Source: an uncultured Candidatus Rokubacteria bacterium (GTDB lineage: Bacteria; Methylomirabilota; Methylomirabilia; Rokubacteriales; DASRDR01). From it: 64,000 nucleotides of DNA. The position numbers and the translations under genes were made by a program. The stretch is taken from positions 416,001-480,000 of the forward strand of contig CAWDVE010000013.1 in assembly GCA_963805625.1 (NCBI GenBank), read 5' to 3'. The notes under the pieces were generated by a model. The model saw nothing but the letters and a program-made list of their open reading frames with translations, did no database searches and had not been told where the DNA came from. Below are positions 22,986 through 39,039 of this stretch, one piece after another; the first letter of the stretch is position 1, and each line of letters begins with the position of its first letter.

Positions 22986-23099
22986 CCGGGGCTAGGATCG
23001 CGTTGAGATGGCGGGCGAGGGCATCGGGTCAACCCAGGGGAAGGACAGTCGGGAAGTGGCGGCTTGTCCGTACCCTAACCGCGCTCCGACAAGGGAGGC

Positions 23100-24009
23100 G
23101 CCTGGCATGCAGCGCGCCCTCCAGACCGAGCTGGCCGGGCTGGAAGGTCTCCGATCCGTCGGCGCCCGGGACCTGCAGGACATCCAGCGGGAGGTGGAGG
23201 GGCGACTCACGGACTGGCGCGGACTCCTCCGGCGCCAGATCGCCCAAAGCCGCCAGATCCTCAGGAAGCTCCTGGTGGGGCGAATCGTCTCCCATTATCT
23301 GGCGGGCCGCAGTGGCGTCCGGGGTAACGGGACCCAAGCCGCGATCGCCGCGGGGTACGCCCCCCGGAGCGCCGCCGTGCAGGCACACGCCCTCCTCAGA
23401 CGACCGAGGATCCAGCAGGCCCTCGCCGCCCGTTGCGCTAAGGCGGATATCACGGCGGACCGCGTGCTCGAGAAGCTGCGGCGCGTCGCCTTCTCCGACA
23501 TGGGCGACGTGGCGGACTGGAATGCGGACGGCGTGCGGGTGATTCCGCACGATCAGCTCAGCGAGGATGCGCGGCGAACGCTAGATGAAATCGTGGAGCA
23601 CACGACCCGGCGCATCACGACGCGGCGGACGAAAGCCCACGGGAAACCCGGCGAGCCGGGCTTTGTGCCGGAAGGCGAAGTGGAGACGGTGACGGAAGAG
23701 CGGCAGACGCGCGTGAAGCTCCACGACAAGATCGCGGCGCTGGTGACCCTCTCAAAGTACCTCGGCCTCCTGAAGGACCGGAGCGACGAGCCGGAGCGGC
23801 CCCTGTTCCCCAAGGGGTTCTTCGAGGCCAAGGTGCTGGGCCACGTGAACCGGATCAAGGGGTTCCTGCCCGAGGACACAGTCCTCGAGACGACGGCGAC
23901 TCCGGGAACCCCGAACCAAGCGCAGTATGCGAAGCCCAGGTCAAGTACAAGTCTCGACGGGACCTCCGACTACTGCTTCGGCGGAAGAACCGGGTTCGGA
24001 TTCGCCTGA
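23100..24009 (+). mobile_element. Prophage remnant: recombinase C-terminal-like fragment fused to terminase small subunit
   Basis: RLTDWRGLLRRQIAQSRQILRKLLVGRI (serine-recombinase tail-like) then NGTQAAIAAGY...ITADRVLEKLRRVAFSD...VKLHDKIAAL (TerS). Confidence 0.72.
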
Positions 24010-25729: not shown

Positions 25730-26986
25730 CTACCACTCCCACAGCGCCGTGAGGGGGACTGCGTGGAGATTCGGACCGAAGGCCACCGCCTGGCGCCCGA
25801 GGTACAGCACGAGGCCGCGATGGAACCGGCGACCGGCGATGTCGGCCAGCGCCTTGAGTCCCTTGAAGTCCTCGGCGGTGGCGGTTTGGCTGGATCGTAC
25901 CTCGACGCCGACCACGTGGCCATTCCGCTCGAGGACGAGGTCCACCTCGGCCCCCTTGGGCGTCCGGAAGTGAAAGAGGCGCGGGGGATCCGGGTTCCAG
26001 GACGCCTGTTTGAGCAGCTCGAGCCCGACGAAGTTCTCCAGCAGGCCGCCCCACAGGACCGGCTCGCCGAGGAGGCGCGCCTGGGTGAGCTGGAGGAGCG
26101 CCGCGGCGAGGCCCGTATCGACGAACGCCACCTTCGGCGCCTTCGTGACCCGGCTCCCGAGATTCGTGGCCCAGGCCGGCATCAGTCTGACGAGGAACGT
26201 CGTCTGGAGCAGGGTCATGTACCGCTGGAGCGTGGCGTAGGGAAGCCCAATCCCCCGGCCGATATCGGCGAGGTTCAGCAAGCTCGCCGTGCGCGACGCC
26301 AGGAGCGTCAGCAGATCGGGCATCGCCGTGAGCTTCTCGATGTGGGCCAGCTCCCGGACGTCCCGCTCGAGGACGGCCGTGACGTACGACGCGAACCACC
26401 GCCGGCGCCGGGCCTCGGGCCGGGCATAGGCGTCCGGGAAGCCCCCCCGGAGAATGCGGCGCGTGATCTCGGTGCGGTCCGGCGGGCTCGGCGCCTTCGG
26501 AAGCCGAGCGGCGAAGGCAGCGTCCAGGAAGCCCTCGCGCCGGCCCCCGATCTCCCCCTGAGACAGCGGGTAGAGCGTGAGGAGCTCCATGCGCCCGGCG
26601 AGGGATTCCGAGATCCGGGGGACGACGAGCACGTGGGCCGACCCCGTGAGCAGGAAGCGGCCCGGCCGGCGCCGGCGATCGACGGCGGCCTTGACGGCCA
26701 GGAGCAGATCCGGCGCTCGCTGCACCTCGTCGATGACGGTCAGCTCGTCGAAGGAAGCGAGGAAGCCCGTGGGATCCCGCTGGGCGGCCGCCAAGGTGGT
26801 GGCCTCGTCCAGGGTGACGTAGCGGTCCGGCGGGACGAGCGTCTGGGCGAGCGTGGACTTCCCCGCCTGGCGCGGCCCGACGAGACACACCACGGGCGTA
26901 TCCCGCAGCGCGGCCGTGATTGTCTCGGTGATATGCCGTCGAAGCATGGGTGTATTATACCCATTGAATGGGTGATTTTCATCCAC
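25730..26986 (-). CDS. AAA_14 ATPase with DUF4143 domain
   Basis: GPRQAGKST, IDEVQ, LTGS, ESLAGR, GGFP, DTGL, LENFV, EVDLV...VEVR. Confidence 0.92.
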   Translation of the reverse strand: MDENHPFNGYNTPMLRRHITETITAALRDTPVVCLVGPRQAGKSTLAQTLVPPDRYVTLDEATTLAAAQRDPTGFLASFDELTVIDEVQRAPDLLLAVKAAVDRRRRPGRFLLTGSAHVLVVPRISESLAGRMELLTLYPLSQGEIGGRREGFLDAAFAARLPKAPSPPDRTEITRRILRGGFPDAYARPEARRRRWFASYVTAVLERDVRELAHIEKLTAMPDLLTLLASRTASLLNLADIGRGIGLPYATLQRYMTLLQTTFLVRLMPAWATNLGSRVTKAPKVAFVDTGLAAALLQLTQARLLGEPVLWGGLLENFVGLELLKQASWNPDPPRLFHFRTPKGAEVDLVLERNGHVVGVEVRSSQTATAEDFKGLKALADIAGRRFHRGLVLYLGRQAVAFGPNLHAVPLTALWEW

Positions 26987-27088
26987 CAGAAGGTACCCGC
27001 ACCGTGTGTGGAGGCGGTCGGCTCACCGGTTCATCCCTGGTCTGGCCCGGGACCCCGAGCCGACCGCAACGGCGGCCTCGCCAGTGGG

Positions 27089-27940
27089 CTAGGCCTCCTC
27101 GAAGCGCGGCGGCCGCTTCGCGAAGAAGGCCTCGAGCCCCTCGGCGAAGTCGCGCCCGTCGGCGATGCGGGCGAGGTGCTCGAGCTCCCGGTCGAGATGG
27201 TAGTCGAGCCGATCCACTCCCGCCGCCTGGTTGAGCAGCGCCTTAGCGACGCCGTAGGCTCGGGTCGGGCCCTCGGCGAGCCTCCGGGCCAGCGCACCCA
27301 CTTCGTCCTCGAAGGCCTCGGCCGGGTGGACGGCAGTGATCAGGCCCATCTCCAGCGCAGCCCGCGCGTCGAGGCGCGGGTTGAGGAGGACCAGCTCCAT
27401 CGATCGCCGGAGCCCGATGAGCCGGGGCAGAAAGAAGGTGGAACTCTCAGCGCCGGTGAGACTGGTTTTCGGGTAGGCCCACTCGAACGTGGCGCGGGCG
27501 CTGGCCAGCACGAGATCGCAAGCCATCGCGATTCCGAAGCCGCCCGCCGCCGCCATGCCGTCCACGGCGGCGATGAACGGTTTCGGGGCCCGCTTGATCT
27601 CGGAGATCGTGCTGTGGATGTACTCGAGGATCTGCTTGAAGATCTCGCCGTACCCGCCCGGGACCTCCCGGGCGTCCGGCGAGAGGTAGCCGAGCTCGGC
27701 CCGCTCGCCGCCCGCCCGGATGTACTTGAGATCGGCCCCGCTGCAGAAGACCCCGCCCGCGCCCCGGATCACCACGGCGCGGATCTCGTCGTCGCGGGCG
27801 TACCGGAGGCCCGCTCTACGGAAGTCCTGGGCGGTCTCCACGTCGAGCGAGTTGAAGCGCTCTCGCCGGTCGATGGTGATGACACCCACCGCGCCGTCGC
27901 GCTCCATCCGGATGTGCTTCATGCTCGGCTCTACGGCCAT
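27089..27940 (-). CDS. Enoyl-CoA hydratase/isomerase (crotonase) family protein
   Basis: FCSGADL, AAVDGMAAAGG...ACDLVLA, FFAKRPP. Confidence 0.9.
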   Translation of the reverse strand: MAVEPSMKHIRMERDGAVGVITIDRRERFNSLDVETAQDFRRAGLRYARDDEIRAVVIRGAGGVFCSGADLKYIRAGGERAELGYLSPDAREVPGGYGEIFKQILEYIHSTISEIKRAPKPFIAAVDGMAAAGGFGIAMACDLVLASARATFEWAYPKTSLTGAESSTFFLPRLIGLRRSMELVLLNPRLDARAALEMGLITAVHPAEAFEDEVGALARRLAEGPTRAYGVAKALLNQAAGVDRLDYHLDRELEHLARIADGRDFAEGLEAFFAKRPPRFEEA

Positions 27941-27950
27941 GACCGTCTCC

Positions 27951-28991
27951 TCAGCAGATCCGAGGCAGCGGCTCCCCCTCCGGCTCGGAGAGCAGCCGCC
28001 GCCCGAAACCCGTGTCCAGGATCACCGCGCCTGCGTGCTCGGCGATGCATGTCCCGATGACGGCCGCGTTCTCCCCGAGCGGGTGGGCGCGGAGCGCCGC
28101 CAGCACCCGCTCCGCCGCCTCCGGCCGGACGCCCAGCACCGCCTTGCCTTCGTTGGCGATGTGGAGCGGGTCGATGCCCAGCAAGTCGGCGGCCGCTCCG
28201 ACCACCGGCGACACGGGCACGGACCGTTCGTCCAGCACGATGCCGACGCCGCTCTTGTCGGCCATCTCGTGGAGCGCGCTCGACAGCCCTCCGCGGGTCG
28301 GGTCCTTCATCGCCGTCACTGCGCCTCCGCCGGCAGCGAGCGCGCGGGCGACGAGATCGTTGAGCGGGGCCACGTCGGAGCGGAGGTCGGCCTCGAGTTC
28401 GAGCCCCTTGCGCAGCGCCATGATGGCGAAGCCATGGTCCCCCATGGTGCCGGTGACGAGGATGCGGTCACCGGACCGGAGACCCGAGTCGGGCACCACG
28501 CGGTCGGTGAGGCCGATGCCCGTCGTGTTGAGCACGATGCCGTCGAGCTCCCCTCGGCCCATGACCTTGGTGTCGCCCGTGACGATCACGGCGCCTGCTT
28601 CACGGCAGGTGCTGTGGATGGACGCCTGGATGCGCTCGAGATCCGAGCGGGCGAAACCCTCCTCCAGGATCACGGCGCAAGTGAGGGCCAGCACCTGGGT
28701 GGCGCCCATCATGGCCAGGTCGTTCACCGTCCCCGCGATGGCCAGCCGGCCGATGTCGCCGCCCGGGAAAAAGACCGGGTGGACCACGTGGGAGTCGGTG
28801 GTGATGACGAGCCAGCGGTCGCCGACCCGGAGCGCGGCTCCATCGTCCATCGCGGCCAGGCCGATCCCGTCCACGGGCGTCTCGGCGAAGCCATTCACGA
28901 AGAGGCCCTCGATGAGCGCCCGCATGGCCCGGCCGCCGGCCCCGTGCTTGAGGCTGATGCGCCGGTCGAGAAGGGGCGGCCGCGCTCTCAC
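27951..28991 (-). CDS. hypE: Hydrogenase maturation carbamoyl dehydratase HypE
   Basis: HGAGG, TTDSHVV, GTVNDLAM, TGDTKV, MKDPTRGG, ANEGK, C-terminal PRIC; GTG at 28991 overlaps the hypD stop. Confidence 0.95.
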   Translation of the reverse strand: MRARPPLLDRRISLKHGAGGRAMRALIEGLFVNGFAETPVDGIGLAAMDDGAALRVGDRWLVITTDSHVVHPVFFPGGDIGRLAIAGTVNDLAMMGATQVLALTCAVILEEGFARSDLERIQASIHSTCREAGAVIVTGDTKVMGRGELDGIVLNTTGIGLTDRVVPDSGLRSGDRILVTGTMGDHGFAIMALRKGLELEADLRSDVAPLNDLVARALAAGGGAVTAMKDPTRGGLSSALHEMADKSGVGIVLDERSVPVSPVVGAAADLLGIDPLHIANEGKAVLGVRPEAAERVLAALRAHPLGENAAVIGTCIAEHAGAVILDTGFGRRLLSEPEGEPLPRIC

Positions 28992-29292
28992 GGCGCTCCT
29001 CCGAGATCGGGGTGGCCGCCGTACTGGTGCCAGATCCTGCAGGTGCCTTCGCTCGAGACCATGCAGGCCCCCACCGGCGTCTCCGGCAGGCACTCCTTGC
29101 CGTACAGCGCGCAGTCTGTGGGCGAGGCGATCCCTGCCATGATGTCGCCGCAGACGCAGTCCTGGACGAGCGCAGACGGCGCGTAGTCCCAGAGGCCGGT
29201 CACGTCGATGCGGAAGCGCCGCCTCGCGTCCATGTGGGCCCACTCGTCGCGGAGGCGGAGGTTGCCGTTCGGCACGTGGGCGATGCCGCGCG
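28988..29292 (-). pseudogene. hypD: HypD C-terminal fragment
   Basis: RGIAHVPNG...CVCGDIMAG...DCALYGKECLPETPVGACMVSSEGTC; the N-terminal ~270 aa are absent. Confidence 0.9.
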
Positions 29293-30326
29293 CCGTCCCA
29301 GGGGTGCCTGGCCTTGCCGTCGCCGTCGCTGTACTCGTACCAGGAGCGGGTGACCCACTCCGTGATCTGCTTGTGGTCCATCGGGTGGACCGTCGAGAGA
29401 TCGCGATTCAGGATCACGCCCCGCGGCAGCCAGAGCCGCGCCGCGTCGCCGCTCGTGTCGATGGGGTAGTCGCCGTAGGCGAGATAGTTGCCGACGCCGG
29501 CACCGAGCCCGGCCCAGTCCTTGTAGAACGGGGCGATGGCCAGGACGTCGGGGACGTAGACCTGGTCCACAAATTCCTTGGCGGTCACCAGGAGCTGATG
29601 CTGGAGCGCCAGCTTGTCGGCGTTGAGCGCGGCGGCGCTGTTGGGGTCCAGCGGGATGGCCATCCCGCCGACCAGGTAGGTCTGCGGGTGCGGGTTCTTG
29701 GACCCGAGGATCGCGTGGATCTTGATCACCTCGCGCTGCCAGTCCAGGGCCTCGAGATAGTGCGCCACCGCCATGAGGTTGGCCGCCGGCGGCAGCTTGT
29801 AGGCGGGGTGGCCCCAGTAGCCGTTGGCGAAGAGGCCGAGCTGCCCAGACTCCACGAACTTCTTCAGGCGATCCTGGACGGTCTTGAAGTAGGTTGTGCT
29901 CGACTTGGGCCAGGGCGAGAGGGACTGGGCGAGCTTGGAGGTCTCACCGGGGTCGGCCTTGAGCGCGCCCGTGATGTCCACCCAGTCCAGGGCGTGCAGG
30001 TGATAGAAGTGGATCACGTGGTCCTGGACGTACTGGATCCCCGCGATCAGGTTGCGGATGATCCGGGCATTATCCGGGATCTTGATACCGAGAGCGTCTT
30101 CCACTGCGCGCACGGCGCAGGCGGCGTGAACCGTCGTTCAGACGCCTCAGATGCGCTGGGCGAAGAGCCAGGCGTCGCGCGGGTCCCGCCCCTTGAGCAC
30201 CAGCTCCATGCCACGGAACATCGTGCTCGAGCTCCAGGCCTCCGCGACCTTGCCACCCTCCACCTGCGCCTCGATCCGGAGGTGCCCCTCGATCCTGGTG
30301 ATGGGGTCGATCGCGATCTTCGGCAT
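29293..30326 (-). CDS. Group 1 [NiFe]-hydrogenase large subunit with two in-frame TGA at the L1 CxxC (putative Sec60/Sec63); 3'-truncated
   Basis: MPKIAIDPITRIEGHLR...RDPRDAWLFAQRI*GV*TTVH...HFYHLHALDWVD...KNPHPQ...WYEY...HPWDG; TGA at 30147-30149 and 30138-30140; no other stop in ~345 codons; C-terminal DPCxxC missing. Confidence 0.9.
30101..30124 (-). promoter_or_regulatory. SECIS-like hairpin downstream of the hydrogenase TGA codons
   Basis: mRNA CCG-C-CUGCGC[CGUGC]GCGCAG-UGG; loop starts 23 nt after the second UGA and 32 nt after the first. Folded by eye. Confidence 0.6.
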
Positions 30327-31461
30327 CACGTGGCCTCCTCTTTCGATTGCTGTCCCTGTTCCTTCGGCCGGGTCTTGGCGCGGATGGTACTGACGACGCC
30401 GTGGGCGGCAAAAGCCGCTGCGGTGCCGCCCACGATCCAGCCGCCAATGCGGTCCACCGTGGTCTGCACGCCGGCACCGGGCAGTGGCGGCAGGCGCCGG
30501 TAGAACGGCGTCATGGTGTCCCAGAAATCCCGCTCGGAGCAGCCGACGCAGCCGTGCCCGGCCCCCACCGGCCAGCTCGTCCCGTCGTTCCAGCGGACCA
30601 CGGGGCAGTTGTGATAGGTCTCGGGCCCCTTGCAGCCCATCTTGTACAGGCACCAGCCTTTGCGGTGGCCCTCGTCGCCCCACTCCTCCACGAACTGGCC
30701 GGCATCGAAGTGGGCGCGCCGCTCGCACTGATCGTGGATGCGCTCGCCGTAGGCGAACAGTGGCCGGCCCTGCTGATCGGTCGCCGGCAGCGCGCCGAAC
30801 GTGAGGAAGTGGACGATGGTCGCGGTGATGTTGACGGCATTGGGCGGGCAGCCGGGCAGGTTGATCAGGGTGAGGCCCGGCACCGCGTCCTGGACGCCGA
30901 CGGCCCCGGTGGGATTGGGTTTGGCCGACGGCCAGCCCCCGTAGAAGGCGCAGGCGCCCACCGTGATGGTCGCGGCGGCGCTGCCGCACACCTCCTTGGC
31001 GATGTCGAGCGCCGTCCGGCCGCCGATTGTGCAGTAGATCCCGCCGTCCCCGGTGGGGATCGAGCCCTCGACCACCACCAGATACTTCCCCTTCTCGCTC
31101 CTCACCGTGTCCATCAGTGACTTCTCCGCCGCCTTCCCCGACGGCGCCATGATGGTCTCGTGGTAGTTGACCGAGAGGATGTCCAACGCGATGTCGCCCA
31201 CCGAGGGGCGGCTCGCGCGGAGGAAGGACTCGGTGCACCCGGCGCAATCCTGGAACTCGAGCCACACCAGCGCCGGACGACGGACCTGCTCGAGCGCCGC
31301 GGCGACCCGCGGCAGGTAGCGGTCAGGCAGCGCCAGGACGGCCGTCATGGCGGCGCAGAACTTGACGAAGCTCCGCCGCGGGACCCCCCGCTCCGCCCAG
31401 CGCGTGGGCGGCCGCCCTCCCCAGCCCCGGGGCGTCGCGGTCTTCGGAACGATGGAGCCGT

Positions 31462-31477
<16 letters not shown>
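30326..31477 (-). CDS. [NiFe]-hydrogenase small subunit (Tat signal, C-terminal TM)
   Basis: RRSFVKFC Tat motif, EFQDCAGCTES, GACAFYGG, PGCPP, HDQCERR, WCLYKMGCKGP, WPVGAGHGCVGC. Confidence 0.95.
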
Positions 31478-32143
<666 letters not shown>

Positions 32144-32154
<11 letters not shown>

Positions 32155-32512
32155 AGGGCACCTCCTCGCTCGTCTCGAGGCTGATGACCTCCAGCTCACG
32201 CCCCGAGATCAGCTCGACGAGCCCGGAGCCGCAGCGGGGACAGCTGAAGGACAGCACTTCGATCTCGAAGCCCGCGGCGCAGTCGGCGCAGGTGGCCCGG
32301 ACAGGGATGTGTTCTATCACGAGGACCGCCCCGTCGAGCGCGGTCCCCGGAGTCAGCAGGTCGAAGTAATGGCGGAGGCAATCCGGGACGACGGAGGTGA
32401 GCCGCCCGATCCTGACCGTGACACACGATACGGGAGGGCGCGGCCCCGCGAGGCGGGCCAGGGCGTTCGTCGCCACCTCGATGATCCCCTCGCAGACCGA
32501 CAATTCGTGCAT
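32144..32512 (-). CDS. hypA: Hydrogenase nickel metallochaperone HypA
   Basis: MHELS, CADC...CPRCG, GRE. Confidence 0.95.
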
Positions 32513-32537: not shown

Positions 32538-32957
32538 TCACGTCGGTCCGCGCGCGGCGACCTGGGCGAGAGTGGTCTCGTCCATCATCGCCTGGAGCGT
32601 CGCGCTGACCCGGGCCCACTCGCTCTGCAGTCGGCAGGGATGGGGGTCGCCCGCACGGCGGGGCGGGAAGATGCACCGCCGGAGGACCACGGGCCCCTCG
32701 ATGGCCTCGAAGATCTCCCTCAGCCGGATCTCCTGGGCCGGTCGCGCCAGCGCATAGCCGCGAACGGCGCCGCGGTGGGACGAGACCAGGCGGTGACGCC
32801 GGAGCTTCTGGAGCGTGCGGGCCAGAAAGCCGGCGGGCAACTGGCCCGCCTGAGCGATCTGGCGAAGAAGCATGACCGTGCCCCGGGGCTGTCTGGCCAA
32901 CACGATCAACCCCTCCAGGCCATACTGACTCTCGCGACTGAGAATCACCGGAGTCAA
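32538..32957 (-). CDS. Rrf2-family transcriptional regulator
   Basis: YGLEGLIVLA...FLARTLQKL...SHRGAVRGYALARPAQEIRL...IEGP. Confidence 0.85.
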   Translation of the reverse strand: MTPVILSRESQYGLEGLIVLARQPRGTVMLLRQIAQAGQLPAGFLARTLQKLRRHRLVSSHRGAVRGYALARPAQEIRLREIFEAIEGPVVLRRCIFPPRRAGDPHPCRLQSEWARVSATLQAMMDETTLAQVAARGPT

Positions 32958-33169
32958 AAGACCTCACGGGTCGCTTGAGGAAAGAGTGGATCGGCCCGCG
33001 CGTAGGGTCCATGAGCCAAGAGCCTCATTCTTCTGAGGCATGGGCCTCACCTCGGGTCCAGGACAGGCCTGTAGGTCGTGGGCCGCCACGACCGGAGCTT
33101 GACCGCGATCGTGAGGTGGATCAGCAGCGACCCGGGAACCTCGCGAGATCCCTGGCGCCTGGTGCACGG

Positions 33170-33412
33170 CCGGCATCTTCTGCTTCACCCGGTCGTGGAA
33201 CGAGTTCCTCTACGCGCTCATCTTCATGTCGTGCGGCTCGATGAAGATCATTTCGGTCGGGACGGTCAGCGACCTGGTCAAGGCGGACACCCTGTTCTGG
33301 GGATCGCTGATGGCCTCCGCGGTGCTCGGCTCGGTCCCGATCGCCATCCTGTACTCGTTCTTCGTCAAGCAACTACGTGTCCGGGCTCACCGCCGGGGCC
33401 GTGAAGGGATAG
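33170..33412 (+). pseudogene. Carbohydrate ABC permease C-terminal fragment
   Basis: GIFCFTRSWNEFLYAL...WGSLMASAVLGSVPIAILYSFF, frameshift, VSGLTAGAVKG*. Confidence 0.75.
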
Positions 33413-33659
33413 GCAGGCACCGCCCGGCCTGGGTCGCGCCCGACACCGGCGGGGGTTCGGGTCAGGCGCCCAGACGGCCCCCGGAGGCGCCGGCGTGAGT
33501 TCCGGTCAGGACCCGGCGGACATCGTCGGCGTAGGTCACCCGGCGATGCACGAGGCCTATCTCGAGAAATACTCCGAGGGCGCTCCCGCCCCGCTGGCCA
33601 AGTGCTCCGAGCTCTACGGTTCCTCGCCAGAAAGCGCAAGGAAACGGCGGGTGGTGGCT

Positions 33660-33688
33660 CGAACCCGTGTTTCAGCCTTGAGGATGGC
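33660..33688. repeat. 29-bp direct repeat, tRNA-Glu(CTC)-like att relic, copy 1
   Basis: CGAACCCGTGTTTCAGCCTTGAGGATGGC, identical at 38170-38198; its reverse complement contains CTCAAGGCTGAAACACGGGTTCG. Confidence 0.8.
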
Positions 33689-33779
33689 CCTGGCTCGCGC
33701 AGCTAGGGGTACGGCCGCGGCGGCTTCTATAGCTACGACTGGCTCGAGTGAAAAGCACCGAGCGCGTCAATAACCCACA

Positions 33780-34679
33780 TCATTTCCTCTCGAATACCGT
33801 CCGCTGATGAGTGAAGATCTCACGCTCAAAGACCAGCTGATTGCATGAGTACCAGAAGGAGACGATCTGATACCGGAAGTTCTTGTCGAAGATATACTTG
33901 GGCAGCAGCTTCAGCACGAGCCAAAGTTTTCTGAAACTGAACTCGAGGCTCTTTCTCCCCCACTCTTTGAGCGTCTGGATATAGTCCAGCCGTCCGTTGT
34001 TCGCGGATATGAAAGTAAAATAAGGATCGGCGCACTTCTGCAGCTGCTCAAGGCCGCTGGGCAGCCAACTGCCGGGATAATACTTCTCCAAGTGCCCCAT
34101 CACCCAATTGTCCGACAGTTTTTGCGCGTTCACGTCACACTCTTCAGGCCTTGGGACGCGTTTGCCCCAGAGCATGGTCTGGACATACAAGCGTCCGCCG
34201 GGTTTCAACATCTGGGAACATTTCGCGAAAAAGCCATCGTAAATCTGATCCTGCTTGCCCGCCTCGAACTCTTCAATGCTGCAGAAGTGCTCGAGTGGAC
34301 CCACGGCCACGACCGCGTCAAAGACGCCTTCGTTCGAGTCCAGCTCCCTGAAATCCTTCAAGATGGCGTTCAGCCCGTCGGCTCGACATGCCGCGGCCTG
34401 CGCCGGAGACAACGTAAGCCCAAGCCCGACCGCGCCCCGCTCTCGTATGGCGTTTAGAATCGGTCCCCAGCCGCAGCCGACCTCAAGAACCCGGTCCCCT
34501 CTCTTGACGTGAAGGCTGTCAAGAATGAAATCATGCTTCTTCTTCTGCGCCTGTTCGAGCGTCAGGGTAAAGTCACCGCCATACATGGCGCCGCTGATAT
34601 CGGCATGATCTCCGAGGCTCAGACGGAAGATGTCATCCATGTAATCGTACGTAGCCTCGATCTGCTTCTGCGTTGCCAT
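33780..34679 (-). CDS. Cyclopropane-fatty-acyl-phospholipid synthase family methyltransferase
   Basis: TLEQAQKKK, VLEVGCGWG, GLTLSPAQ, LEHF, PGSWLP, DYIQTLKEW; visibly lower GC. Confidence 0.88.
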   Translation of the reverse strand: MATQKQIEATYDYMDDIFRLSLGDHADISGAMYGGDFTLTLEQAQKKKHDFILDSLHVKRGDRVLEVGCGWGPILNAIRERGAVGLGLTLSPAQAAACRADGLNAILKDFRELDSNEGVFDAVVAVGPLEHFCSIEEFEAGKQDQIYDGFFAKCSQMLKPGGRLYVQTMLWGKRVPRPEECDVNAQKLSDNWVMGHLEKYYPGSWLPSGLEQLQKCADPYFTFISANNGRLDYIQTLKEWGRKSLEFSFRKLWLVLKLLPKYIFDKNFRYQIVSFWYSCNQLVFEREIFTHQRTVFERK

Positions 34680-34923
34680 AATAGGTTAACCTTATCATGG
34701 ACACGGCAAGCAGCTTCAGGGGATCGACTTGCGCTGGTCCTCAAGGATCTCCCAGAGCCTTCCGCGCGGCGTCCACTTCGCCGTCCTGCATAGTGGGCCC
34801 TGTACTCTCCGAGATCAGCTTGCAGGCCAGATCCCTCTGCGCCACTCGTGATAGTGCTGATCCAGTAAGCATTGCTACTCTCCCGATCTCCCCGGATCAC
34901 TCGCTTCCAAGAACCTTCACATT

Positions 34924-35232
34924 CTAGAGGAATCCGATGCGCCTGGCGCCTCCGCCCTCCGCACCGATTTCCAGAATCGCGACCACATACGACCACGGGA
35001 CGAGAATCTCGAACCCCTCGTGCTTGCTGCCCGTACCGTCCCAGCTACCATCGGTCCTCGCCACTATGCCCGCCAGGTGGCCGAAGTTCACCACGGTGCA
35101 GGCGATGGCGAAAGCGGGCGCTCCGCGAGGCTGATTCAACTCAGGATCCAAGACTTGGCGGCTCCATGAAAACTTCTCGAACCAGGCACCCTCGACGACC
35201 AGCTCCACACGGTCGCCCTCCCGGATCGGCAT
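34924..35232 (-). CDS. Hypothetical protein (Sm/SH3-like, ends RIGFL)
   Basis: 102-aa ORF with GAGG RBS; EILVPWSYVVAI. Confidence 0.55.
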   Translation of the reverse strand: MPIREGDRVELVVEGAWFEKFSWSRQVLDPELNQPRGAPAFAIACTVVNFGHLAGIVARTDGSWDGTGSKHEGFEILVPWSYVVAILEIGAEGGGARRIGFL

Positions 35233-35639
35233 ACCTCACATCTCCCTGTTCATGAATCACTTGGATCTAGGAACGTGTTACCCTTCCCACTTCGTTCCAC
35301 TCTGAAGTCGCACGGTTCCGGCCCTACTGGTACTTTGACAGACATCGCTGGGTCTGACAGCCAGGTCATGTATCTTGCCATCAACCAGCCGGAATCCCTC
35401 GCGTCCGAAGCTTCCCTGCACTTTGCTGACGATCTCGATCGGAAGCCGGACCATTCGGCTATGAGTCTCGGCATCTTCCTAATGATCAAGTGTGCCGCGG
35501 TGTCCACGGCATGGGGAATGGAATCTGGTATCCCGCGTACTCGTTAGATCGGCTGCTCGCGGTAGCGGTCCCGTCCGAGCGGAGGGCCACGGGTGGCCGT
35601 GGCCCTCGCCCCTGCTCCTGGCGTTCGTCACCCCATGGC

Positions 35640-36281
35640 TTACTGACAGATTTGCTGGCTGTAGGCGGGAATCCACACCGTGGCGCGCTGCCCGTTCTGG
35701 ACCGTCCGGGTCTCGTAGTGGCCCTGGACGGTCACGGTCTCACAGTTCTGACCGCCGGTCGGGGCCGACCCCTGGGCAGGCGGCTGCGGCGGCCCCGCCG
35801 GCGGGCTGCCGTAGCTCAGGCTGGTTGACGGATTCACCTGGCCTCCTGTCCCGGGGTCAGGCGGCGGGGTGTAGGCGGGGGGTGAGTATGCCGGGTACGA
35901 GTATGCGGGATAGCTGTAGGCCGGGTATGGGTAGGTAGGGTACGCGTAGGGATACGCAGGGTACGCGTAGGCCGGGGGATACCAGTAGGGGGCCGTAGCG
36001 AGGGTACCGATCCCCAACCCGAGGGCGAAGCCCCCCCAGCCCCAGCCCCAACCACCCCCGTGCCCACCATGCCAGCCCCCACCTCCACCATGCCAAGCAC
36101 CACCGCCGCCACCACGAAATCCACCGTGCCCCCCACCCCGCTGAGCCTGAGCAGGGCCCGCGAGGAGCGGCACGAGAAGCAGGGCCGCGAGCGCGATCGC
36201 CGTCAATTTCCTCACGTTCTTAGCCTCCTCTACAGTTGTTTTGACGGCAATATCGCGCCTTCGATTCCTAGGTTCCGTCAA
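35640..36281 (-). CDS. Secreted Gly/His- and Pro/Tyr-rich low-complexity protein
   Basis: Signal peptide, GGxHGG repeats, PAY repeats, C-terminal CETVTVQGHY...IC. Confidence 0.75.
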   Translation of the reverse strand: MTEPRNRRRDIAVKTTVEEAKNVRKLTAIALAALLLVPLLAGPAQAQRGGGHGGFRGGGGGAWHGGGGGWHGGHGGGWGWGWGGFALGLGIGTLATAPYWYPPAYAYPAYPYAYPTYPYPAYSYPAYSYPAYSPPAYTPPPDPGTGGQVNPSTSLSYGSPPAGPPQPPAQGSAPTGGQNCETVTVQGHYETRTVQNGQRATVWIPAYSQQICQ

Positions 36282-36520
36282 TCCCGGCGACCACCCCCCG
36301 CCGCCATCCCGGTCTGCCCACCGACCCGCGGGGGCCGGTTCTCACCCAGCGCGCCCGGCCCACTCTGGCCGGCCTGCCGCGCGCTAGAGTCCAGCCACCC
36401 TGGGACTGAACCGGACGCGGAAAACTAGCGACGGAGGGGCTACTCGCCGTCGCTGCAGCAGCCGGAGCGCAAGATTCCGCATGGAGGGTACAGGCGGAAA
36501 ATAAGGTATTCTCGGCGAGC

Positions 36521-37180
36521 ATGAACGACCCCGCCCAGGCGCCGCGCATCGAACCGCGCTGGCCCCCTGCCCTCGTGATCCTCGGGGTGACCGTCTTGCT
36601 CCAATCGCTGCACCCCCGCCTCCGGGTGTTGCCGGCCTGGTTTCACTACACCGTCACGATTGCTTTGCTCGTCCCGATGGTCGGCGTCGCACTGACCACG
36701 GCCAGAGCGCCGTGGCCACGTGTCGAGCGGACGATGACATTTCTCTTTTTCGCGACCGTTCAGGTCGCGACCCTGGTGGCCCTGGGGCGATTGATCGGCG
36801 AGATGGTGTACGACTCGAAGGAGGTCAGCGGGCTCGTGCTACTGGCGTCATCCATTGGGGTGTGGGCGCAGAACGTGCTCGCGTTCTCGTTGCTGTACTG
36901 GCAACTCGATCGAGGCGGGCCGCACGCTCGGGCGAGTAATCTGAGTCAGAAGCCGGACTGGCTCTTTCCGCAAACGGGAGTACCCGAGGACGTGCTGCCC
37001 GGTTGGCAGCCCACGTACGTAGACTACCTGTTCCTGGGATACTCGACGGCGACGGCATTCAGCGCCACCGATGCGCTGCCGCTGACGTCTCGCGCCAAGA
37101 TGCTGATGATGCTTCAGAGCATGATCTCGCTCGTGACGATCCTCCTCGTCGCCGCACGCGCGATCAATATTCTCCAGTGA
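36521..37180 (+). CDS. DUF1345-like membrane protein
   Basis: FSLLYWQLDRGGP, DWLFPQ, YVDYLFLGYSTATAFS...D, KMLMMLQS. Confidence 0.85.
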   Translation: MNDPAQAPRIEPRWPPALVILGVTVLLQSLHPRLRVLPAWFHYTVTIALLVPMVGVALTTARAPWPRVERTMTFLFFATVQVATLVALGRLIGEMVYDSKEVSGLVLLASSIGVWAQNVLAFSLLYWQLDRGGPHARASNLSQKPDWLFPQTGVPEDVLPGWQPTYVDYLFLGYSTATAFSATDALPLTSRAKMLMMLQSMISLVTILLVAARAINILQ

Positions 37181-37419
37181 GACGGTGACCTGGCAGGATG
37201 CGCCCTTCTATCTTGATTCCAATACCAAAGGGCGCCTTTCCGGATGAAACCCCCAATTCGAGTTGACCCGCTTCCGTGGATTCCGTTCCCCTTGTGGGGA
37301 GCGGGAGCTGCGCAGTAGATTCAGTCCTCGCGGCGTTGGGCGGCGAGTCGTTCAGTGCTCGGTTCGCTCACTTCGGTTCACCATGTTCATGCCCCGGCAA
37401 GGAGGAAGGAGACGACTCG

Positions 37420-37851
37420 ATGTTGGCTCAGCTCTCGCTCCGTGAGATCTCGCACGTGATAGCGCTGTCCATGGCGCCGGCCTTTCTTCTGGCGGCGGTC
37501 GGTGCGTTCAGCTCATTGGTGGTAGGCAAGATGACGAGCATCGTCACACGTATCCGCATCCTGAATACCATCGAGGATACCGATCGAGCCCGTGCTCATC
37601 TCAAGGCGGATATTCCAAGGCTCAAGCGCTGCGCGAAGCTGATGGACCGCGCGCTCACATGCTTGGTGGGCAGCGGCTTGGTCACGGCGTCTCTCATGAT
37701 CCTCGCGTTCGCCGGGGCTGTCATGAAGTGGCAGCATGAAACGGCAGTTGCCGTGCTCTTCATGATTACCCTCGCGCTCATCGCAGTCGCGTTTGGCTTC
37801 CTCTTTTGTGAGGCCCTCATCTGGCACGGCGAATTTGATCATCAGGCGTGA
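37420..37851 (+). CDS. DUF2721 membrane protein
   Basis: IALSMAPAFLLAAVG...IVTRIR, three TM segments; GGAGG upstream. Confidence 0.8.
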   Translation: MLAQLSLREISHVIALSMAPAFLLAAVGAFSSLVVGKMTSIVTRIRILNTIEDTDRARAHLKADIPRLKRCAKLMDRALTCLVGSGLVTASLMILAFAGAVMKWQHETAVAVLFMITLALIAVAFGFLFCEALIWHGEFDHQA

Positions 37852-38169
37852 GGTTGCCGCTCCGGGGGGTGCCGACGCACCCGGCCCCAAGGCAGGCCGT
37901 CGATGCACGCGCAGAGGGCAGCGGTGGAGGCCGGAGGCCTCATGTCGTACGGGCCGAGCGCTCACTCGTGGGAAAATTGTGGGAGCGGGACAACCACGGG
38001 GTGGCTCCGGCGCGGTTGTCATCGGCCAGAATGCCGTCGCGAGACGGCCCGGAACTCCCCGGATTCATGGCGATGACGTCCAATGGTGGCCGATAGACCC
38101 CTCCCGGTCACAGAACTGAAAAGCCCGGGTGCATCTTGGTCCCGGAGCCTGGGGGTCTGCAACGAAATG

Positions 38170-38198
38170 CGAACCCGTGTTTCAGCCTTGAGGATGGC
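38170..38198. repeat. 29-bp direct repeat, tRNA-Glu-like att relic, copy 2
   Basis: Identical to 33660-33688. Confidence 0.8.
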
Positions 38199-38389
38199 GA
38201 CGAGCACTGCAGCCGCACGCACTTCTCGCGCGACAGCTACGTTTGGTTGGGATGCATACCGGGCCATGTCCATCTCAGGTTTCAGTAGACTTTCTGAAGA
38301 CTTGTAAAGCGGGCTGGCACTCGTCACCGGCTTTGTCCCGAGACTTGAGAGCGCCTTCTAGACCGGGGCGACCGCGCCCGCTCGAACCT

Positions 38390-38670
38390 CCGGCGATCTA
38401 CCAGGTGTGGCCCCGTCTCCTGACACAGGCGCGGTTGACTGGCAGGCCGGGCGGGAGCCTCCGCGAGTGCCCCCCAGGCCCTCCGCCAATACTCTATGCG
38501 AGCCTCCAAATTGCCAAGGTCATCGAGGCCGGACGCGACCGGGACGCCCTCCTGACGTACCTCAGAAGCCAGCTGCGTCATCGGAACATCCAAAGGGCGA
38601 TGGGCTACTACATCCACCTCTTCCCGGGCGGCCAACGGGAGATCACCAACCGCCCGGACGACGACATCGG
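38390..38670 (+). pseudogene. Tyrosine integrase C-terminal remnant
   Basis: YASLQIAK...LTYLRSQLRHRNIQRAMGYYIHLFPGGQREITNRPDD resembles box II (QLGH...Y.HL.P). Confidence 0.6.
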
Positions 38671-38793
38671 CCGGGACTGGCCGTCGGTCTTCCGGTCCAT
38701 CCGGCCGAGGGATGCGAGGCCTCTGGATTCGTCGCAGACCATCGTAAATCCGTCTCACTTGGCGAAAACGTCGCAATCGAGGGCCCCTGGAAC

Positions 38794-39039
38794 GTGAGCG
38801 AAAGGTCCGTAACGGTATATAGTTCGCCCACCTGACGCCCCTGCAAGCAGACGAAAGAGTTTCTTTCGTCCAAGGGCGTGACGTATCGGGAAGTGAACGT
38901 GGCGGAGGACTTGGAGGGCCGGGATGAGCTGATCCGGCGTACCGGTCAGCTGGCCGTGCCAGTGACGGTGATCGACGACGAGGTGGTGCTGGGCTTCAAC
39001 CGGCCCCGGCTCGTCGAGCTGCTCGGCCTGGACGCCTAA
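38794..39039 (+). CDS. Glutaredoxin/NrdH-like selenoprotein (UxxC)
   Basis: VSERSVTVYSSPT*RPCKQTKEFLSSKGVTYREVNV...TGQLAVPVTVIDDEVVLGFN; in-frame TGA at 38833-38835 occupies the first Cys of CxxC. Confidence 0.88.
38836..38878 (+). promoter_or_regulatory. Bacterial SECIS-like hairpin of the glutaredoxin gene
   Basis: Lower stem CGCCC/GGGCG; upper 9-bp stem GACGAAAGA[GUU]UCUUUCGUC; loop starts 23 nt after UGA. Confidence 0.75.

Follow-up and report, generated by a model that had tools for sequence, protein, structure and literature searches.

The 64,000-nucleotide stretch of an uncultured Candidatus Rokubacteria bacterium analyzed here (the window) contains an operon for a group 1f-like uptake [NiFe]-hydrogenase, in whose large-subunit gene both ligand codons of the N-terminal motif L1 are TGA. 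Judging from related sequences, both UGA codons of this family are probably read as selenocysteine (Sec). With somewhat less assurance, we favor a broader picture in which a di-selenolate [NiFeSeSe] form would be dominant among group 1f-like enzymes in Thermodesulfovibrionia-type Nitrospirota, many Anaerolineae and some Methylomirabilota, its first 63 residues being cut off by gene callers, a single SECIS element serving two Sec codons with help from the rare codon ATA, and the order of the two positions being fixed.

The Large-Subunit Gene and Its Two TGA Codons

The large-subunit gene of a group 1 [NiFe]-hydrogenase, 569 codons long in intact orthologues, is represented at positions 29291–30326 on the minus strand by its first 345 codons. 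At the L1 motif this strand reads GCC CAG CGC ATC TGA GGC GTC TGA ACG ACG GTT CAC (RI-TGA-GV-TGA-TTVH), and translation of the 344 codons of 29293–30326 reveals no stops other than these two TGAs, in agreement with the first-pass annotation of the window. Codon 60 (30147–30149, minus strand) corresponds to the first L1 ligand, equivalent to C76 of Escherichia coli Hyd-1 and predicted to be a terminal Ni ligand, and codon 63 (30138–30140, minus strand) to the second, equivalent to C79 and predicted to bridge Ni and Fe; these roles are based on sequence alignment and on the literature (available text of PMC13582414). The earlier placement of the TGAs on the two L1 cysteines holds, since RICGVC of PDB 3MYR aligns with both positions without gaps when an intact orthologue is the query. 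Two chance nonsense changes on just these codons had been thought improbable, and the probability that two random stops both fall on L1 Cys codons is indeed about 2e-4 (101 single-base routes to a stop, uniform rates). Contigs of RNA run X15 extend over both TGA codons, a weak hint of transcription, as DNA can occur in such a library.

Operon Structure and a 5.3-kb Gap

The small subunit (30326–31477, minus strand) scores above the cut-off of TIGR00391, and its stop codon overlaps the ATG of the large subunit. It carries a twin-arginine leader, which we take to be a Tat signal, a CAGC motif, presumably the proximal-cluster motif, and a C-terminal hydrophobic anchor. With CAGC as our assumed criterion, the motif points to a standard proximal cluster. 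Profile matches on the same strand identify hypB (31462–32199) and an Rrf2-family regulator upstream of the operon (32538–32957), and hypA (32144–32512) scores 79 bits, slightly below its 88-bit cut-off. On the other side of the large subunit are a 3' remnant of hypD (28988–29291, minus strand) and hypE (27951–28925, minus strand), both also profile matches.

In G019, a genome of another genus in the same family, the operon is 98–99% identical at the nucleotide level and 5,277 bases longer. Comparison of the two places a junction with one shared base at 29291. The missing 5,277 nucleotides comprise the large-subunit C-terminus with the second ligand motif (L2, DPCMACAVH in G019), cytochrome b, a maturation protease, hypF, hypC and most of hypD; no trace of them was found anywhere else in the window's genome (G000). 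After ...HPWDG the large subunit runs at 29291 into the last part of hypD in a different reading frame, and hypE follows. The first-pass annotation missed this gap: the large-subunit gene has no natural end at 29293 but is cut. The L2 motif is absent from this copy, and no second copy was found in the genome. The gene content of the operon is therefore drawn from several sources, with the small subunit, hypA, hypB and hypE seen in the window, and cytochrome b, the protease, hypF, hypC and hypD in G019 and G436. As assembled, the window's copy, having no L2, is predicted to be non-functional and could not make the enzyme.

Contigs of four public runs were compared with the region. None of the contig pieces listed spans 29291. 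In X1 and X2, loose contig ends at this position run on into an intact large subunit, and in X1, X2 and X6 they reach hypD sequence from further upstream. Run X1 includes pieces without any difference and may be the source sample, so it is not independent. Given the intact contig continuations and the frameshifts in selB and formate dehydrogenase of the same genome, the balance tips toward an assembly artefact or a minority haplotype rather than a fixed deletion.

Several further features of the locus were recorded. The gap yields a stop-free chimeric ORF of 720 aa (27951–30113, minus strand), composed of the middle of the large subunit, the out-of-frame hypD remnant and hypE, which a gene caller would report as one protein. 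The operon (27079–31985, compared with L193, G019:C15:2-10185) is 98–99% identical between G000 and G019, whereas selB is 79% identical over the 179 nucleotides compared, a contrast indicating either recent transfer between genera or mis-binning. Contamination amounts to 6–9% in both genomes, and the operon was found in none of 14 genomes of the same genus. Its flanks include a terminase small-subunit domain (23008–24009, plus strand), an AAA/DUF4143 ATPase (25730–26986, minus strand) and, at 33000–39000, DNA of lower GC content (57–67%) with a cyclopropane-synthase-like methyltransferase; this suggests a patchwork of acquired genes. A scan of the operon for promoters and terminators gave nothing above chance.

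Inheritance and Spread of the TGA-Type Genes

Genes are designated here by their two L1 positions, with U for TGA and C for a Cys codon; UxxU and CxxU genes together are called TGA-type. Among 251 genomes of the window's phylum, six orthologues with at least 89% identity were found, five of them UxxU (G000, G438, G436, G391 and G316) and one CxxU (G019, TGC then TGA). G438, G436, G391, G316 and the metagenome contig L202 encode proteins of 569 aa with intact L2. Relative to the window, synonymous and non-synonymous codon differences in the shared part number 42 and 8 in G438, 80 and 26 in G436, 91 and 26 in G391, 97 and 62 in G316, and 39 and 15 in L202. The orthologue search proposed with the first-pass annotation thus recovers intact genes that keep both TGAs amid synonymous divergence, and by this comparison the TGAs are inherited, not damage. 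The closest copy, that of G019 (98.8% nucleotide identity), nests among UxxU rows, so its TGC represents a reversion or an error.

A pattern scan that required the second TGA, covered 20 of the 64 parts of the genome collection and is uninformative on UxxC or on frequencies gave 120 loci (about 400 estimated overall), mostly titled Nitrospirota, Anaerolineae, Desulfobacterota and Bacillota. Removal of seven chance matches outside hydrogenases (L024, L026, L040, L042, L067, L103 and L113) left 55 UxxU and 58 CxxU loci; duplicates of one gene were likewise set aside. In 201 genomes of Anaerolineae, 58 matches comprised 22 genes with two TGAs, 6 with one, 29 without a stop and one with TAG, all TGA cases having at least 75% identity. 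The 141 genomes of a Nitrospirota-rich class, that of G079, gave 110 matches, namely 63 with two TGAs, 17 with one and 30 with no stop; codons were read for all 17 one-TGA genes and, among the 63 two-TGA genes, for the few that had also come up in the pattern scan. Among metagenomes, which gave 589 loci, the best 80 comprised 18 UxxU, 10 CxxU and 52 CxxC. In the samples not selected for TGA, UxxC alone was never encountered: all 34 single-TGA genes are CxxU.

On a FastTree tree of 191 rows, from which 14 distant rows, rows shorter than 300 aa and rows with an upstream stop were left out, the three states require at least 20 changes, which implies gains or reversions on more than one occasion, in a direction that the tree does not show. 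All 68 of the best 120 database proteins with at least 80% identity begin after the L1 motif, and the other 52 are full-length, all CxxC and at most 79% identical; the splitting of the gene by gene callers, noted at first pass for the window, is therefore general among its close relatives. L2 is DPCxxC in 84 of 84 full-length TGA-type genes (51 UxxU, 33 CxxU) and in 20 of 20 metagenome ones, so a third Sec, looked for in L2, was not found in the genes examined. A search for amino-acid changes linked to Sec gave top columns confounded by clade, and residue 69 alone could be explained, by the hairpin described below.

A second, distant group 1 lineage (L047, L114, L053, L056, L110, L071, L072, L075, L092 and L133) also contains TGA-type genes. 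Two of its loci, L047 and L114, are UxxU and share both the ATA codon and the location of the hairpin; its CxxU loci include two in a complete Desulforudis genome. L076 resembles the CxxU entries of HydDB group 3c. The CxxC gene L146 appears to have reverted from a TGA-type ancestor, as it retains ATA ahead of L1 and TCC GTG CGA GCT, with the stem partly disrupted. The Anaerolineales genome G095 (L154, L173 and L174) has two UxxU paralogues and one CxxC paralogue. G038 gave two weak matches only, and no claim is based on them.

A SECIS-Like Hairpin Downstream of L1

A SECIS-like hairpin is located at 30104–30120 on the minus strand, with the stem UGCGC/GCGCA, closed by C-G, and the loop CGUGC (z -2.14 for the 65-nt region). 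Its loop G, at 30113, lies 24 nt past the second UGA and 33 nt past the first; the corresponding distance in selD of the same genome is 20 nt from UGA to loop G. A loop G at the first or second position is the SECIS criterion given in the available text of PMC13582414. For the survey we required a stem of 5 bp spanning +21 to +35, counted from the second UGA, and a G second in a 5-nt loop, a stem definition that was made on TGA-type genes and favors finding it there. Among distinct sequences it was present in 63 of 84 UxxU and 43 of 66 CxxU genes, i.e., in 106 of 150 TGA-type genes, versus 0 of 79 CxxC genes. The strict stem was failed by 19 of the 84 UxxU genes, 17 of which share a variant with a GGU loop, and by 23 of the 66 CxxU genes. 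The outer pair covaries (U-A 42, A-U 42 and G-C 21), with 1.4 bits of mutual information and 98% pairing, the values for Cys genes being 0.02 bits and 48%. In the window this pair is a rare compensated G-C instead of U-A, found in 2 of 106. The association of hairpin and TGA persists on seven independent tree pairs (6.7 concordant, 0 opposite, median p 0.016).

Isoleucine ahead of the first UGA is encoded by ATA in 73 of 84 UxxU genes versus 4 of 66 CxxU and 2 of 79 CxxC genes, and this codon recurs in a distant UxxU clade; the window has ATC. On independent pairs the link between ATA and UxxU is not significant (4:0 of 8, p 0.125). Two other candidate elements for the first UGA, a UxxU-specific second hairpin (UGAAC/GUUCA) and ACG at +2 as an adaptor, received no support on independent pairs (p 1 and p 0.5, respectively).

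Selenocysteine Machinery and Candidate UGA-Cys tRNAs

The genome containing the window (99.9% complete) encodes tRNA-Sec(UCA), selA and selD, the last with its own UGA and hairpin. Its selB has a 1-nt frameshift at a C/G homopolymer (G000:C21:225030-224976). The Sec machinery that had been proposed as a check is thus present as selA, selC and selD, with selB frameshifted, and no UGA-Cys tRNA was detected. In five phylum relatives both selB and tRNA-Sec are intact in all five. More widely, selA was found in 46 of 50 UxxU genomes and selB in 50 of 55 TGA-type genomes; in Anaerolineae, selA or tRNA-Sec is present in 26 of 26 TGA-type versus 19 of 25 Cys-only genomes (p 0.01, its significance exaggerated by the relatedness of the genomes). 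Elsewhere in the window's genome are a formate dehydrogenase-like gene with several frameshifts (G000:C11:74300-77600) and, in lower-GC DNA, a group 3b-like hydrogenase with Cys motifs (C11:1400-2730).

Three methods (profile, pattern scan and covariance model) detected no SelC*-like tRNA in this genome, and it has a single cysS, a single selB and one canonical tRNA-Cys. When secondary tRNA-Sec-like matches in other genomes were fetched, nine of ten proved to be long-arm tRNAs with a GCA anticodon and U73. A model built from these tRNAs detected them in 12 of 29 genomes of a Nitrospirota-rich UxxU set, of which 9 are training rows, and gave no hit in the 35 TGA-type genomes of Chloroflexota or the six of the window's phylum, where a model trained on Nitrospirota may miss divergent forms. 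Within the class of G079, genomes with SelC*-like tRNAs number 21 of 63 with two TGAs, 7 of 17 with one, 14 of 26 that are Cys-only and 8 of 35 without a match, and there is no enrichment with two TGAs (p 0.72; sensitivity limited, 28 candidates scored per genome). SelC*/tRNA-ReC-like tRNAs with GCA, U73 and a variable arm of up to about 45 nt are thus carried by 50 of 141 genomes, independently of hydrogenase type (L298, L300–L307 and L313–L324). Truncated cysS paralogues of about 405–430 aa (L282–L287) lack the C-terminal part and have a transporter-like neighbor in five of six cases. They were considered as CysRS* and rejected, as none of the six examined has selB or a convincing tRNA nearby.

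Comparison with Known Hydrogenases

The best-matching models are of the HyaB/HybC type, and the operon includes cytochrome b rather than antiporter-like subunits, which separates the enzyme from group 4. Among solved structures the best match is the group 1e enzyme 3MYR (774 bits). Intact orthologues combine the TGA-containing L1 with L2 of the form DPCxxCxxH, the pattern of group 1 uptake large subunits. HydDB lists Oscillochloris trichoides and three Thermodesulfovibrio species under group 1f (PMC5037454), whose architecture of small subunit, large subunit and cytochrome b is shared here. An Oscillochloridaceae-named protein falls in the same supported clade as the window, and so do proteins from Thermodesulfovibrionales, the named relatives of which HydDB classes as 1f. 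The enzyme is probably an uptake hydrogenase of group 1f, an assignment by proxy clade in a tree that has no HydDB reference. Group 1f has been placed in Chloroflexales (PMC6776052), and the available text of PMC11291895 and PMC12727194 holds nothing further on its placement.

In characterized [NiFeSe] hydrogenases a single Se serves as a terminal ligand, at the C-terminal site. Members of groups 1a, 3a and 3c (PDB 1CC1 and 2WPN; NF045518) share with the window's family a Sec that serves as Ni ligand in the large subunit, but theirs is the C-terminal terminal ligand (UxxC), whereas L2 is DPCxxC here; accordingly, NF045518 scores 396 against a cut-off of 780. The canopy residue, described as Asp versus Ser in [NiFeSe] enzymes (PMC8020662), is an invariant Asp (D102), whose equivalence to D118 of Hyd-1 comes from the motif. 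In the available text of two selenoprotein reviews, hydrogenase alpha subunits are listed only as UxxC (PMC13188914, PMC9312934).

Sec at the L1 positions has precedents. N-terminal CXXU was noted in two group 1 sequences and one group 3 sequence (Baltazar 2011, via PMC13582414); the bridging second L1 position is the same, and these three sequences have a single Sec with no UXXU. The HydDB table, as available in PMC5037454, contains neither RIUG nor GVUT, and RICGVU only in two group 3c proteins. UXXU, CXXU and UXXC forms of group 4 [NiFeSe] hydrogenases were described in silico by Takano et al. 2026 (PMC13582414), so the first-pass remark that no description of a two-selenium active site was known does not hold for the motif itself; its occurrence in group 1 appears to be new. 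Like the window's family, these predicted group 4 enzymes have UGA at one or both N-terminal Ni ligands, a Cys-only L2, a single downstream SECIS-like hairpin with a loop G, co-occurring sel genes and a mosaic spread. As far as the available text goes, that study concerns H2-evolving energy-converting complexes, with 47 of 23,473 sequences, 16 of them UXXU, and excludes groups 1–3. The window's enzyme differs in being a three-subunit uptake hydrogenase; in its family two-TGA genes form the majority in some lineages (63 of 110 matches), UxxC was not seen, and tRNA-ReC is not enriched. In the literature covered, with subscription papers largely outside, no report of a group 1 UXXU form was found.

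Alternative Explanations

None of the observations named at first pass as counting against recoding was made, these being Cys codons in the reads, Cys throughout the close full-length orthologues and a genome lacking UGA-decoding machinery. Recoding of UGA is strongly supported for the family, and that the residue is Sec rather than Cys at both codons is what we infer. A dead gene, with the TGAs arising from nonsense mutation or from errors in long reads, could be proposed because the window's copy is truncated and its genome has frameshifts in selB and in the C11 formate dehydrogenase, but this is scarcely credible: numerous genomes from different phyla have the same TGAs in intact genes that differ at synonymous sites and are accompanied by a hairpin that covaries. 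The X1 summary tables count no T>G or T>A (plus strand), those of RNA run X15 place its sole T>G at 29895, and contigs of both runs cover the two codons. With intact orthologues and synonymous divergence, sequencing error or a pseudogene is ruled out as the source of the codons. An ordinary [NiFe] site with Cys at both UGAs is very improbable in a genome having neither a suitable tRNA nor a second selB or cysS, although SelC* tRNAs with a UCA anticodon can insert Cys at Sec codons (PMC5389517); in other carriers the six truncated cysS paralogues have no selB or tRNA beside them.

Only the second UGA may specify Sec, with Cys inserted at the first through a SelC*/tRNA-ReC or through near-cognate read-through, which would give a single selenium. 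We regard this as unlikely. It fits the distance of the first UGA from the hairpin (33 nt), the lack of any UxxC among the 34 single-TGA genes, all of them CxxU, the frequent interchange of UxxU and CxxU on the tree, the GCA/U73 tRNAs in 12 genomes of the Nitrospirota-rich UxxU set and the enrichment of tRNA-ReC in group 4 UXXU genomes, published with this very caveat (PMC13582414), yet offers no reason why UGA should be kept in many lineages merely for Cys. Moreover, SelC*-like tRNAs were not found in the window's genome, its five phylum relatives or the 35 Chloroflexota TGA-type genomes, and they are not enriched in the class of G079. The tandem UGAs might instead act as a selenium gate, full-length enzyme being made only when Sec-tRNA is plentiful and the chemistry of the residues being secondary; two recoding events within four codons would sharpen selenium dependence, and Cys and TGA paralogues lie side by side in some genomes (G095). 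This appears quite improbable as the main explanation and is compatible with, not exclusive of, Sec at both codons. A gate could sit anywhere, whereas the UGAs occupy metal ligands only, and the preference for ATA before the first UGA, which would favor a gate, loses significance on independent pairs and is not shared by the window.

Proposed Mechanism and Significance

If Sec is inserted at both UGAs, as we favor, one hairpin, 24 nt beyond the second codon and 33 nt beyond the first, would bind SelB and serve for two deliveries of Sec-tRNA. The Ni site would then comprise Se60 (terminal), Se63 (bridging), S548 (terminal) and S551 (bridging). Hyp proteins would insert Fe(CN)2CO and Ni, the protease would trim the large subunit after DPCMACAVH, and the dimer would be exported by Tat, the electrons from H2 passing via cytochrome b to quinone. 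Such maturation and Tat export follow the ordinary route of group 1 enzymes.

The bridging Sec would be acquired first, and the terminal one added only on top of it. Sec is tolerated at each of the two positions in E. coli Hyd-1, where C79U retains 13% and C76U 3% of native activity, the KM for H2 is 5.3 uM in C79U, 21.9 uM in C76U and 36.8 uM in the native enzyme, and both variants are less O2-tolerant (PMC8020662). These are artificial single substitutions in an O2-tolerant group 1d enzyme, the available text describing no double variant among the four made, and no double-Sec enzyme was found in the literature covered. The variant data fit the natural order, with the bridging position first and the terminal one never alone, and suggest H2 affinity over O2 protection. 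The likely benefit, the weakest step of this scheme, may be tighter H2 binding in anoxic, low-H2 habitats and not O2 tolerance.

Intact representatives of the enzyme are those of G438, G436, G391, G316 and L202, the window's copy being, by its sequence, the damaged one. The group 1 UXXU form is far commoner than its group 4 counterpart and apparently undescribed. Hydrogenase surveys that require an intact L1 would miss these genes, since all 68 database proteins with at least 80% identity lack the N-terminus. As a three-subunit enzyme, it would be a simpler purification target than the predicted group 4 complexes, and it opens to testing the role of Se at each of the four ligand positions and the recoding of two nearby UGAs by one SECIS element. 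If the reading is true, bridging and terminal Se at the other two positions would constitute a new coordination set for a well-studied H2 catalyst.
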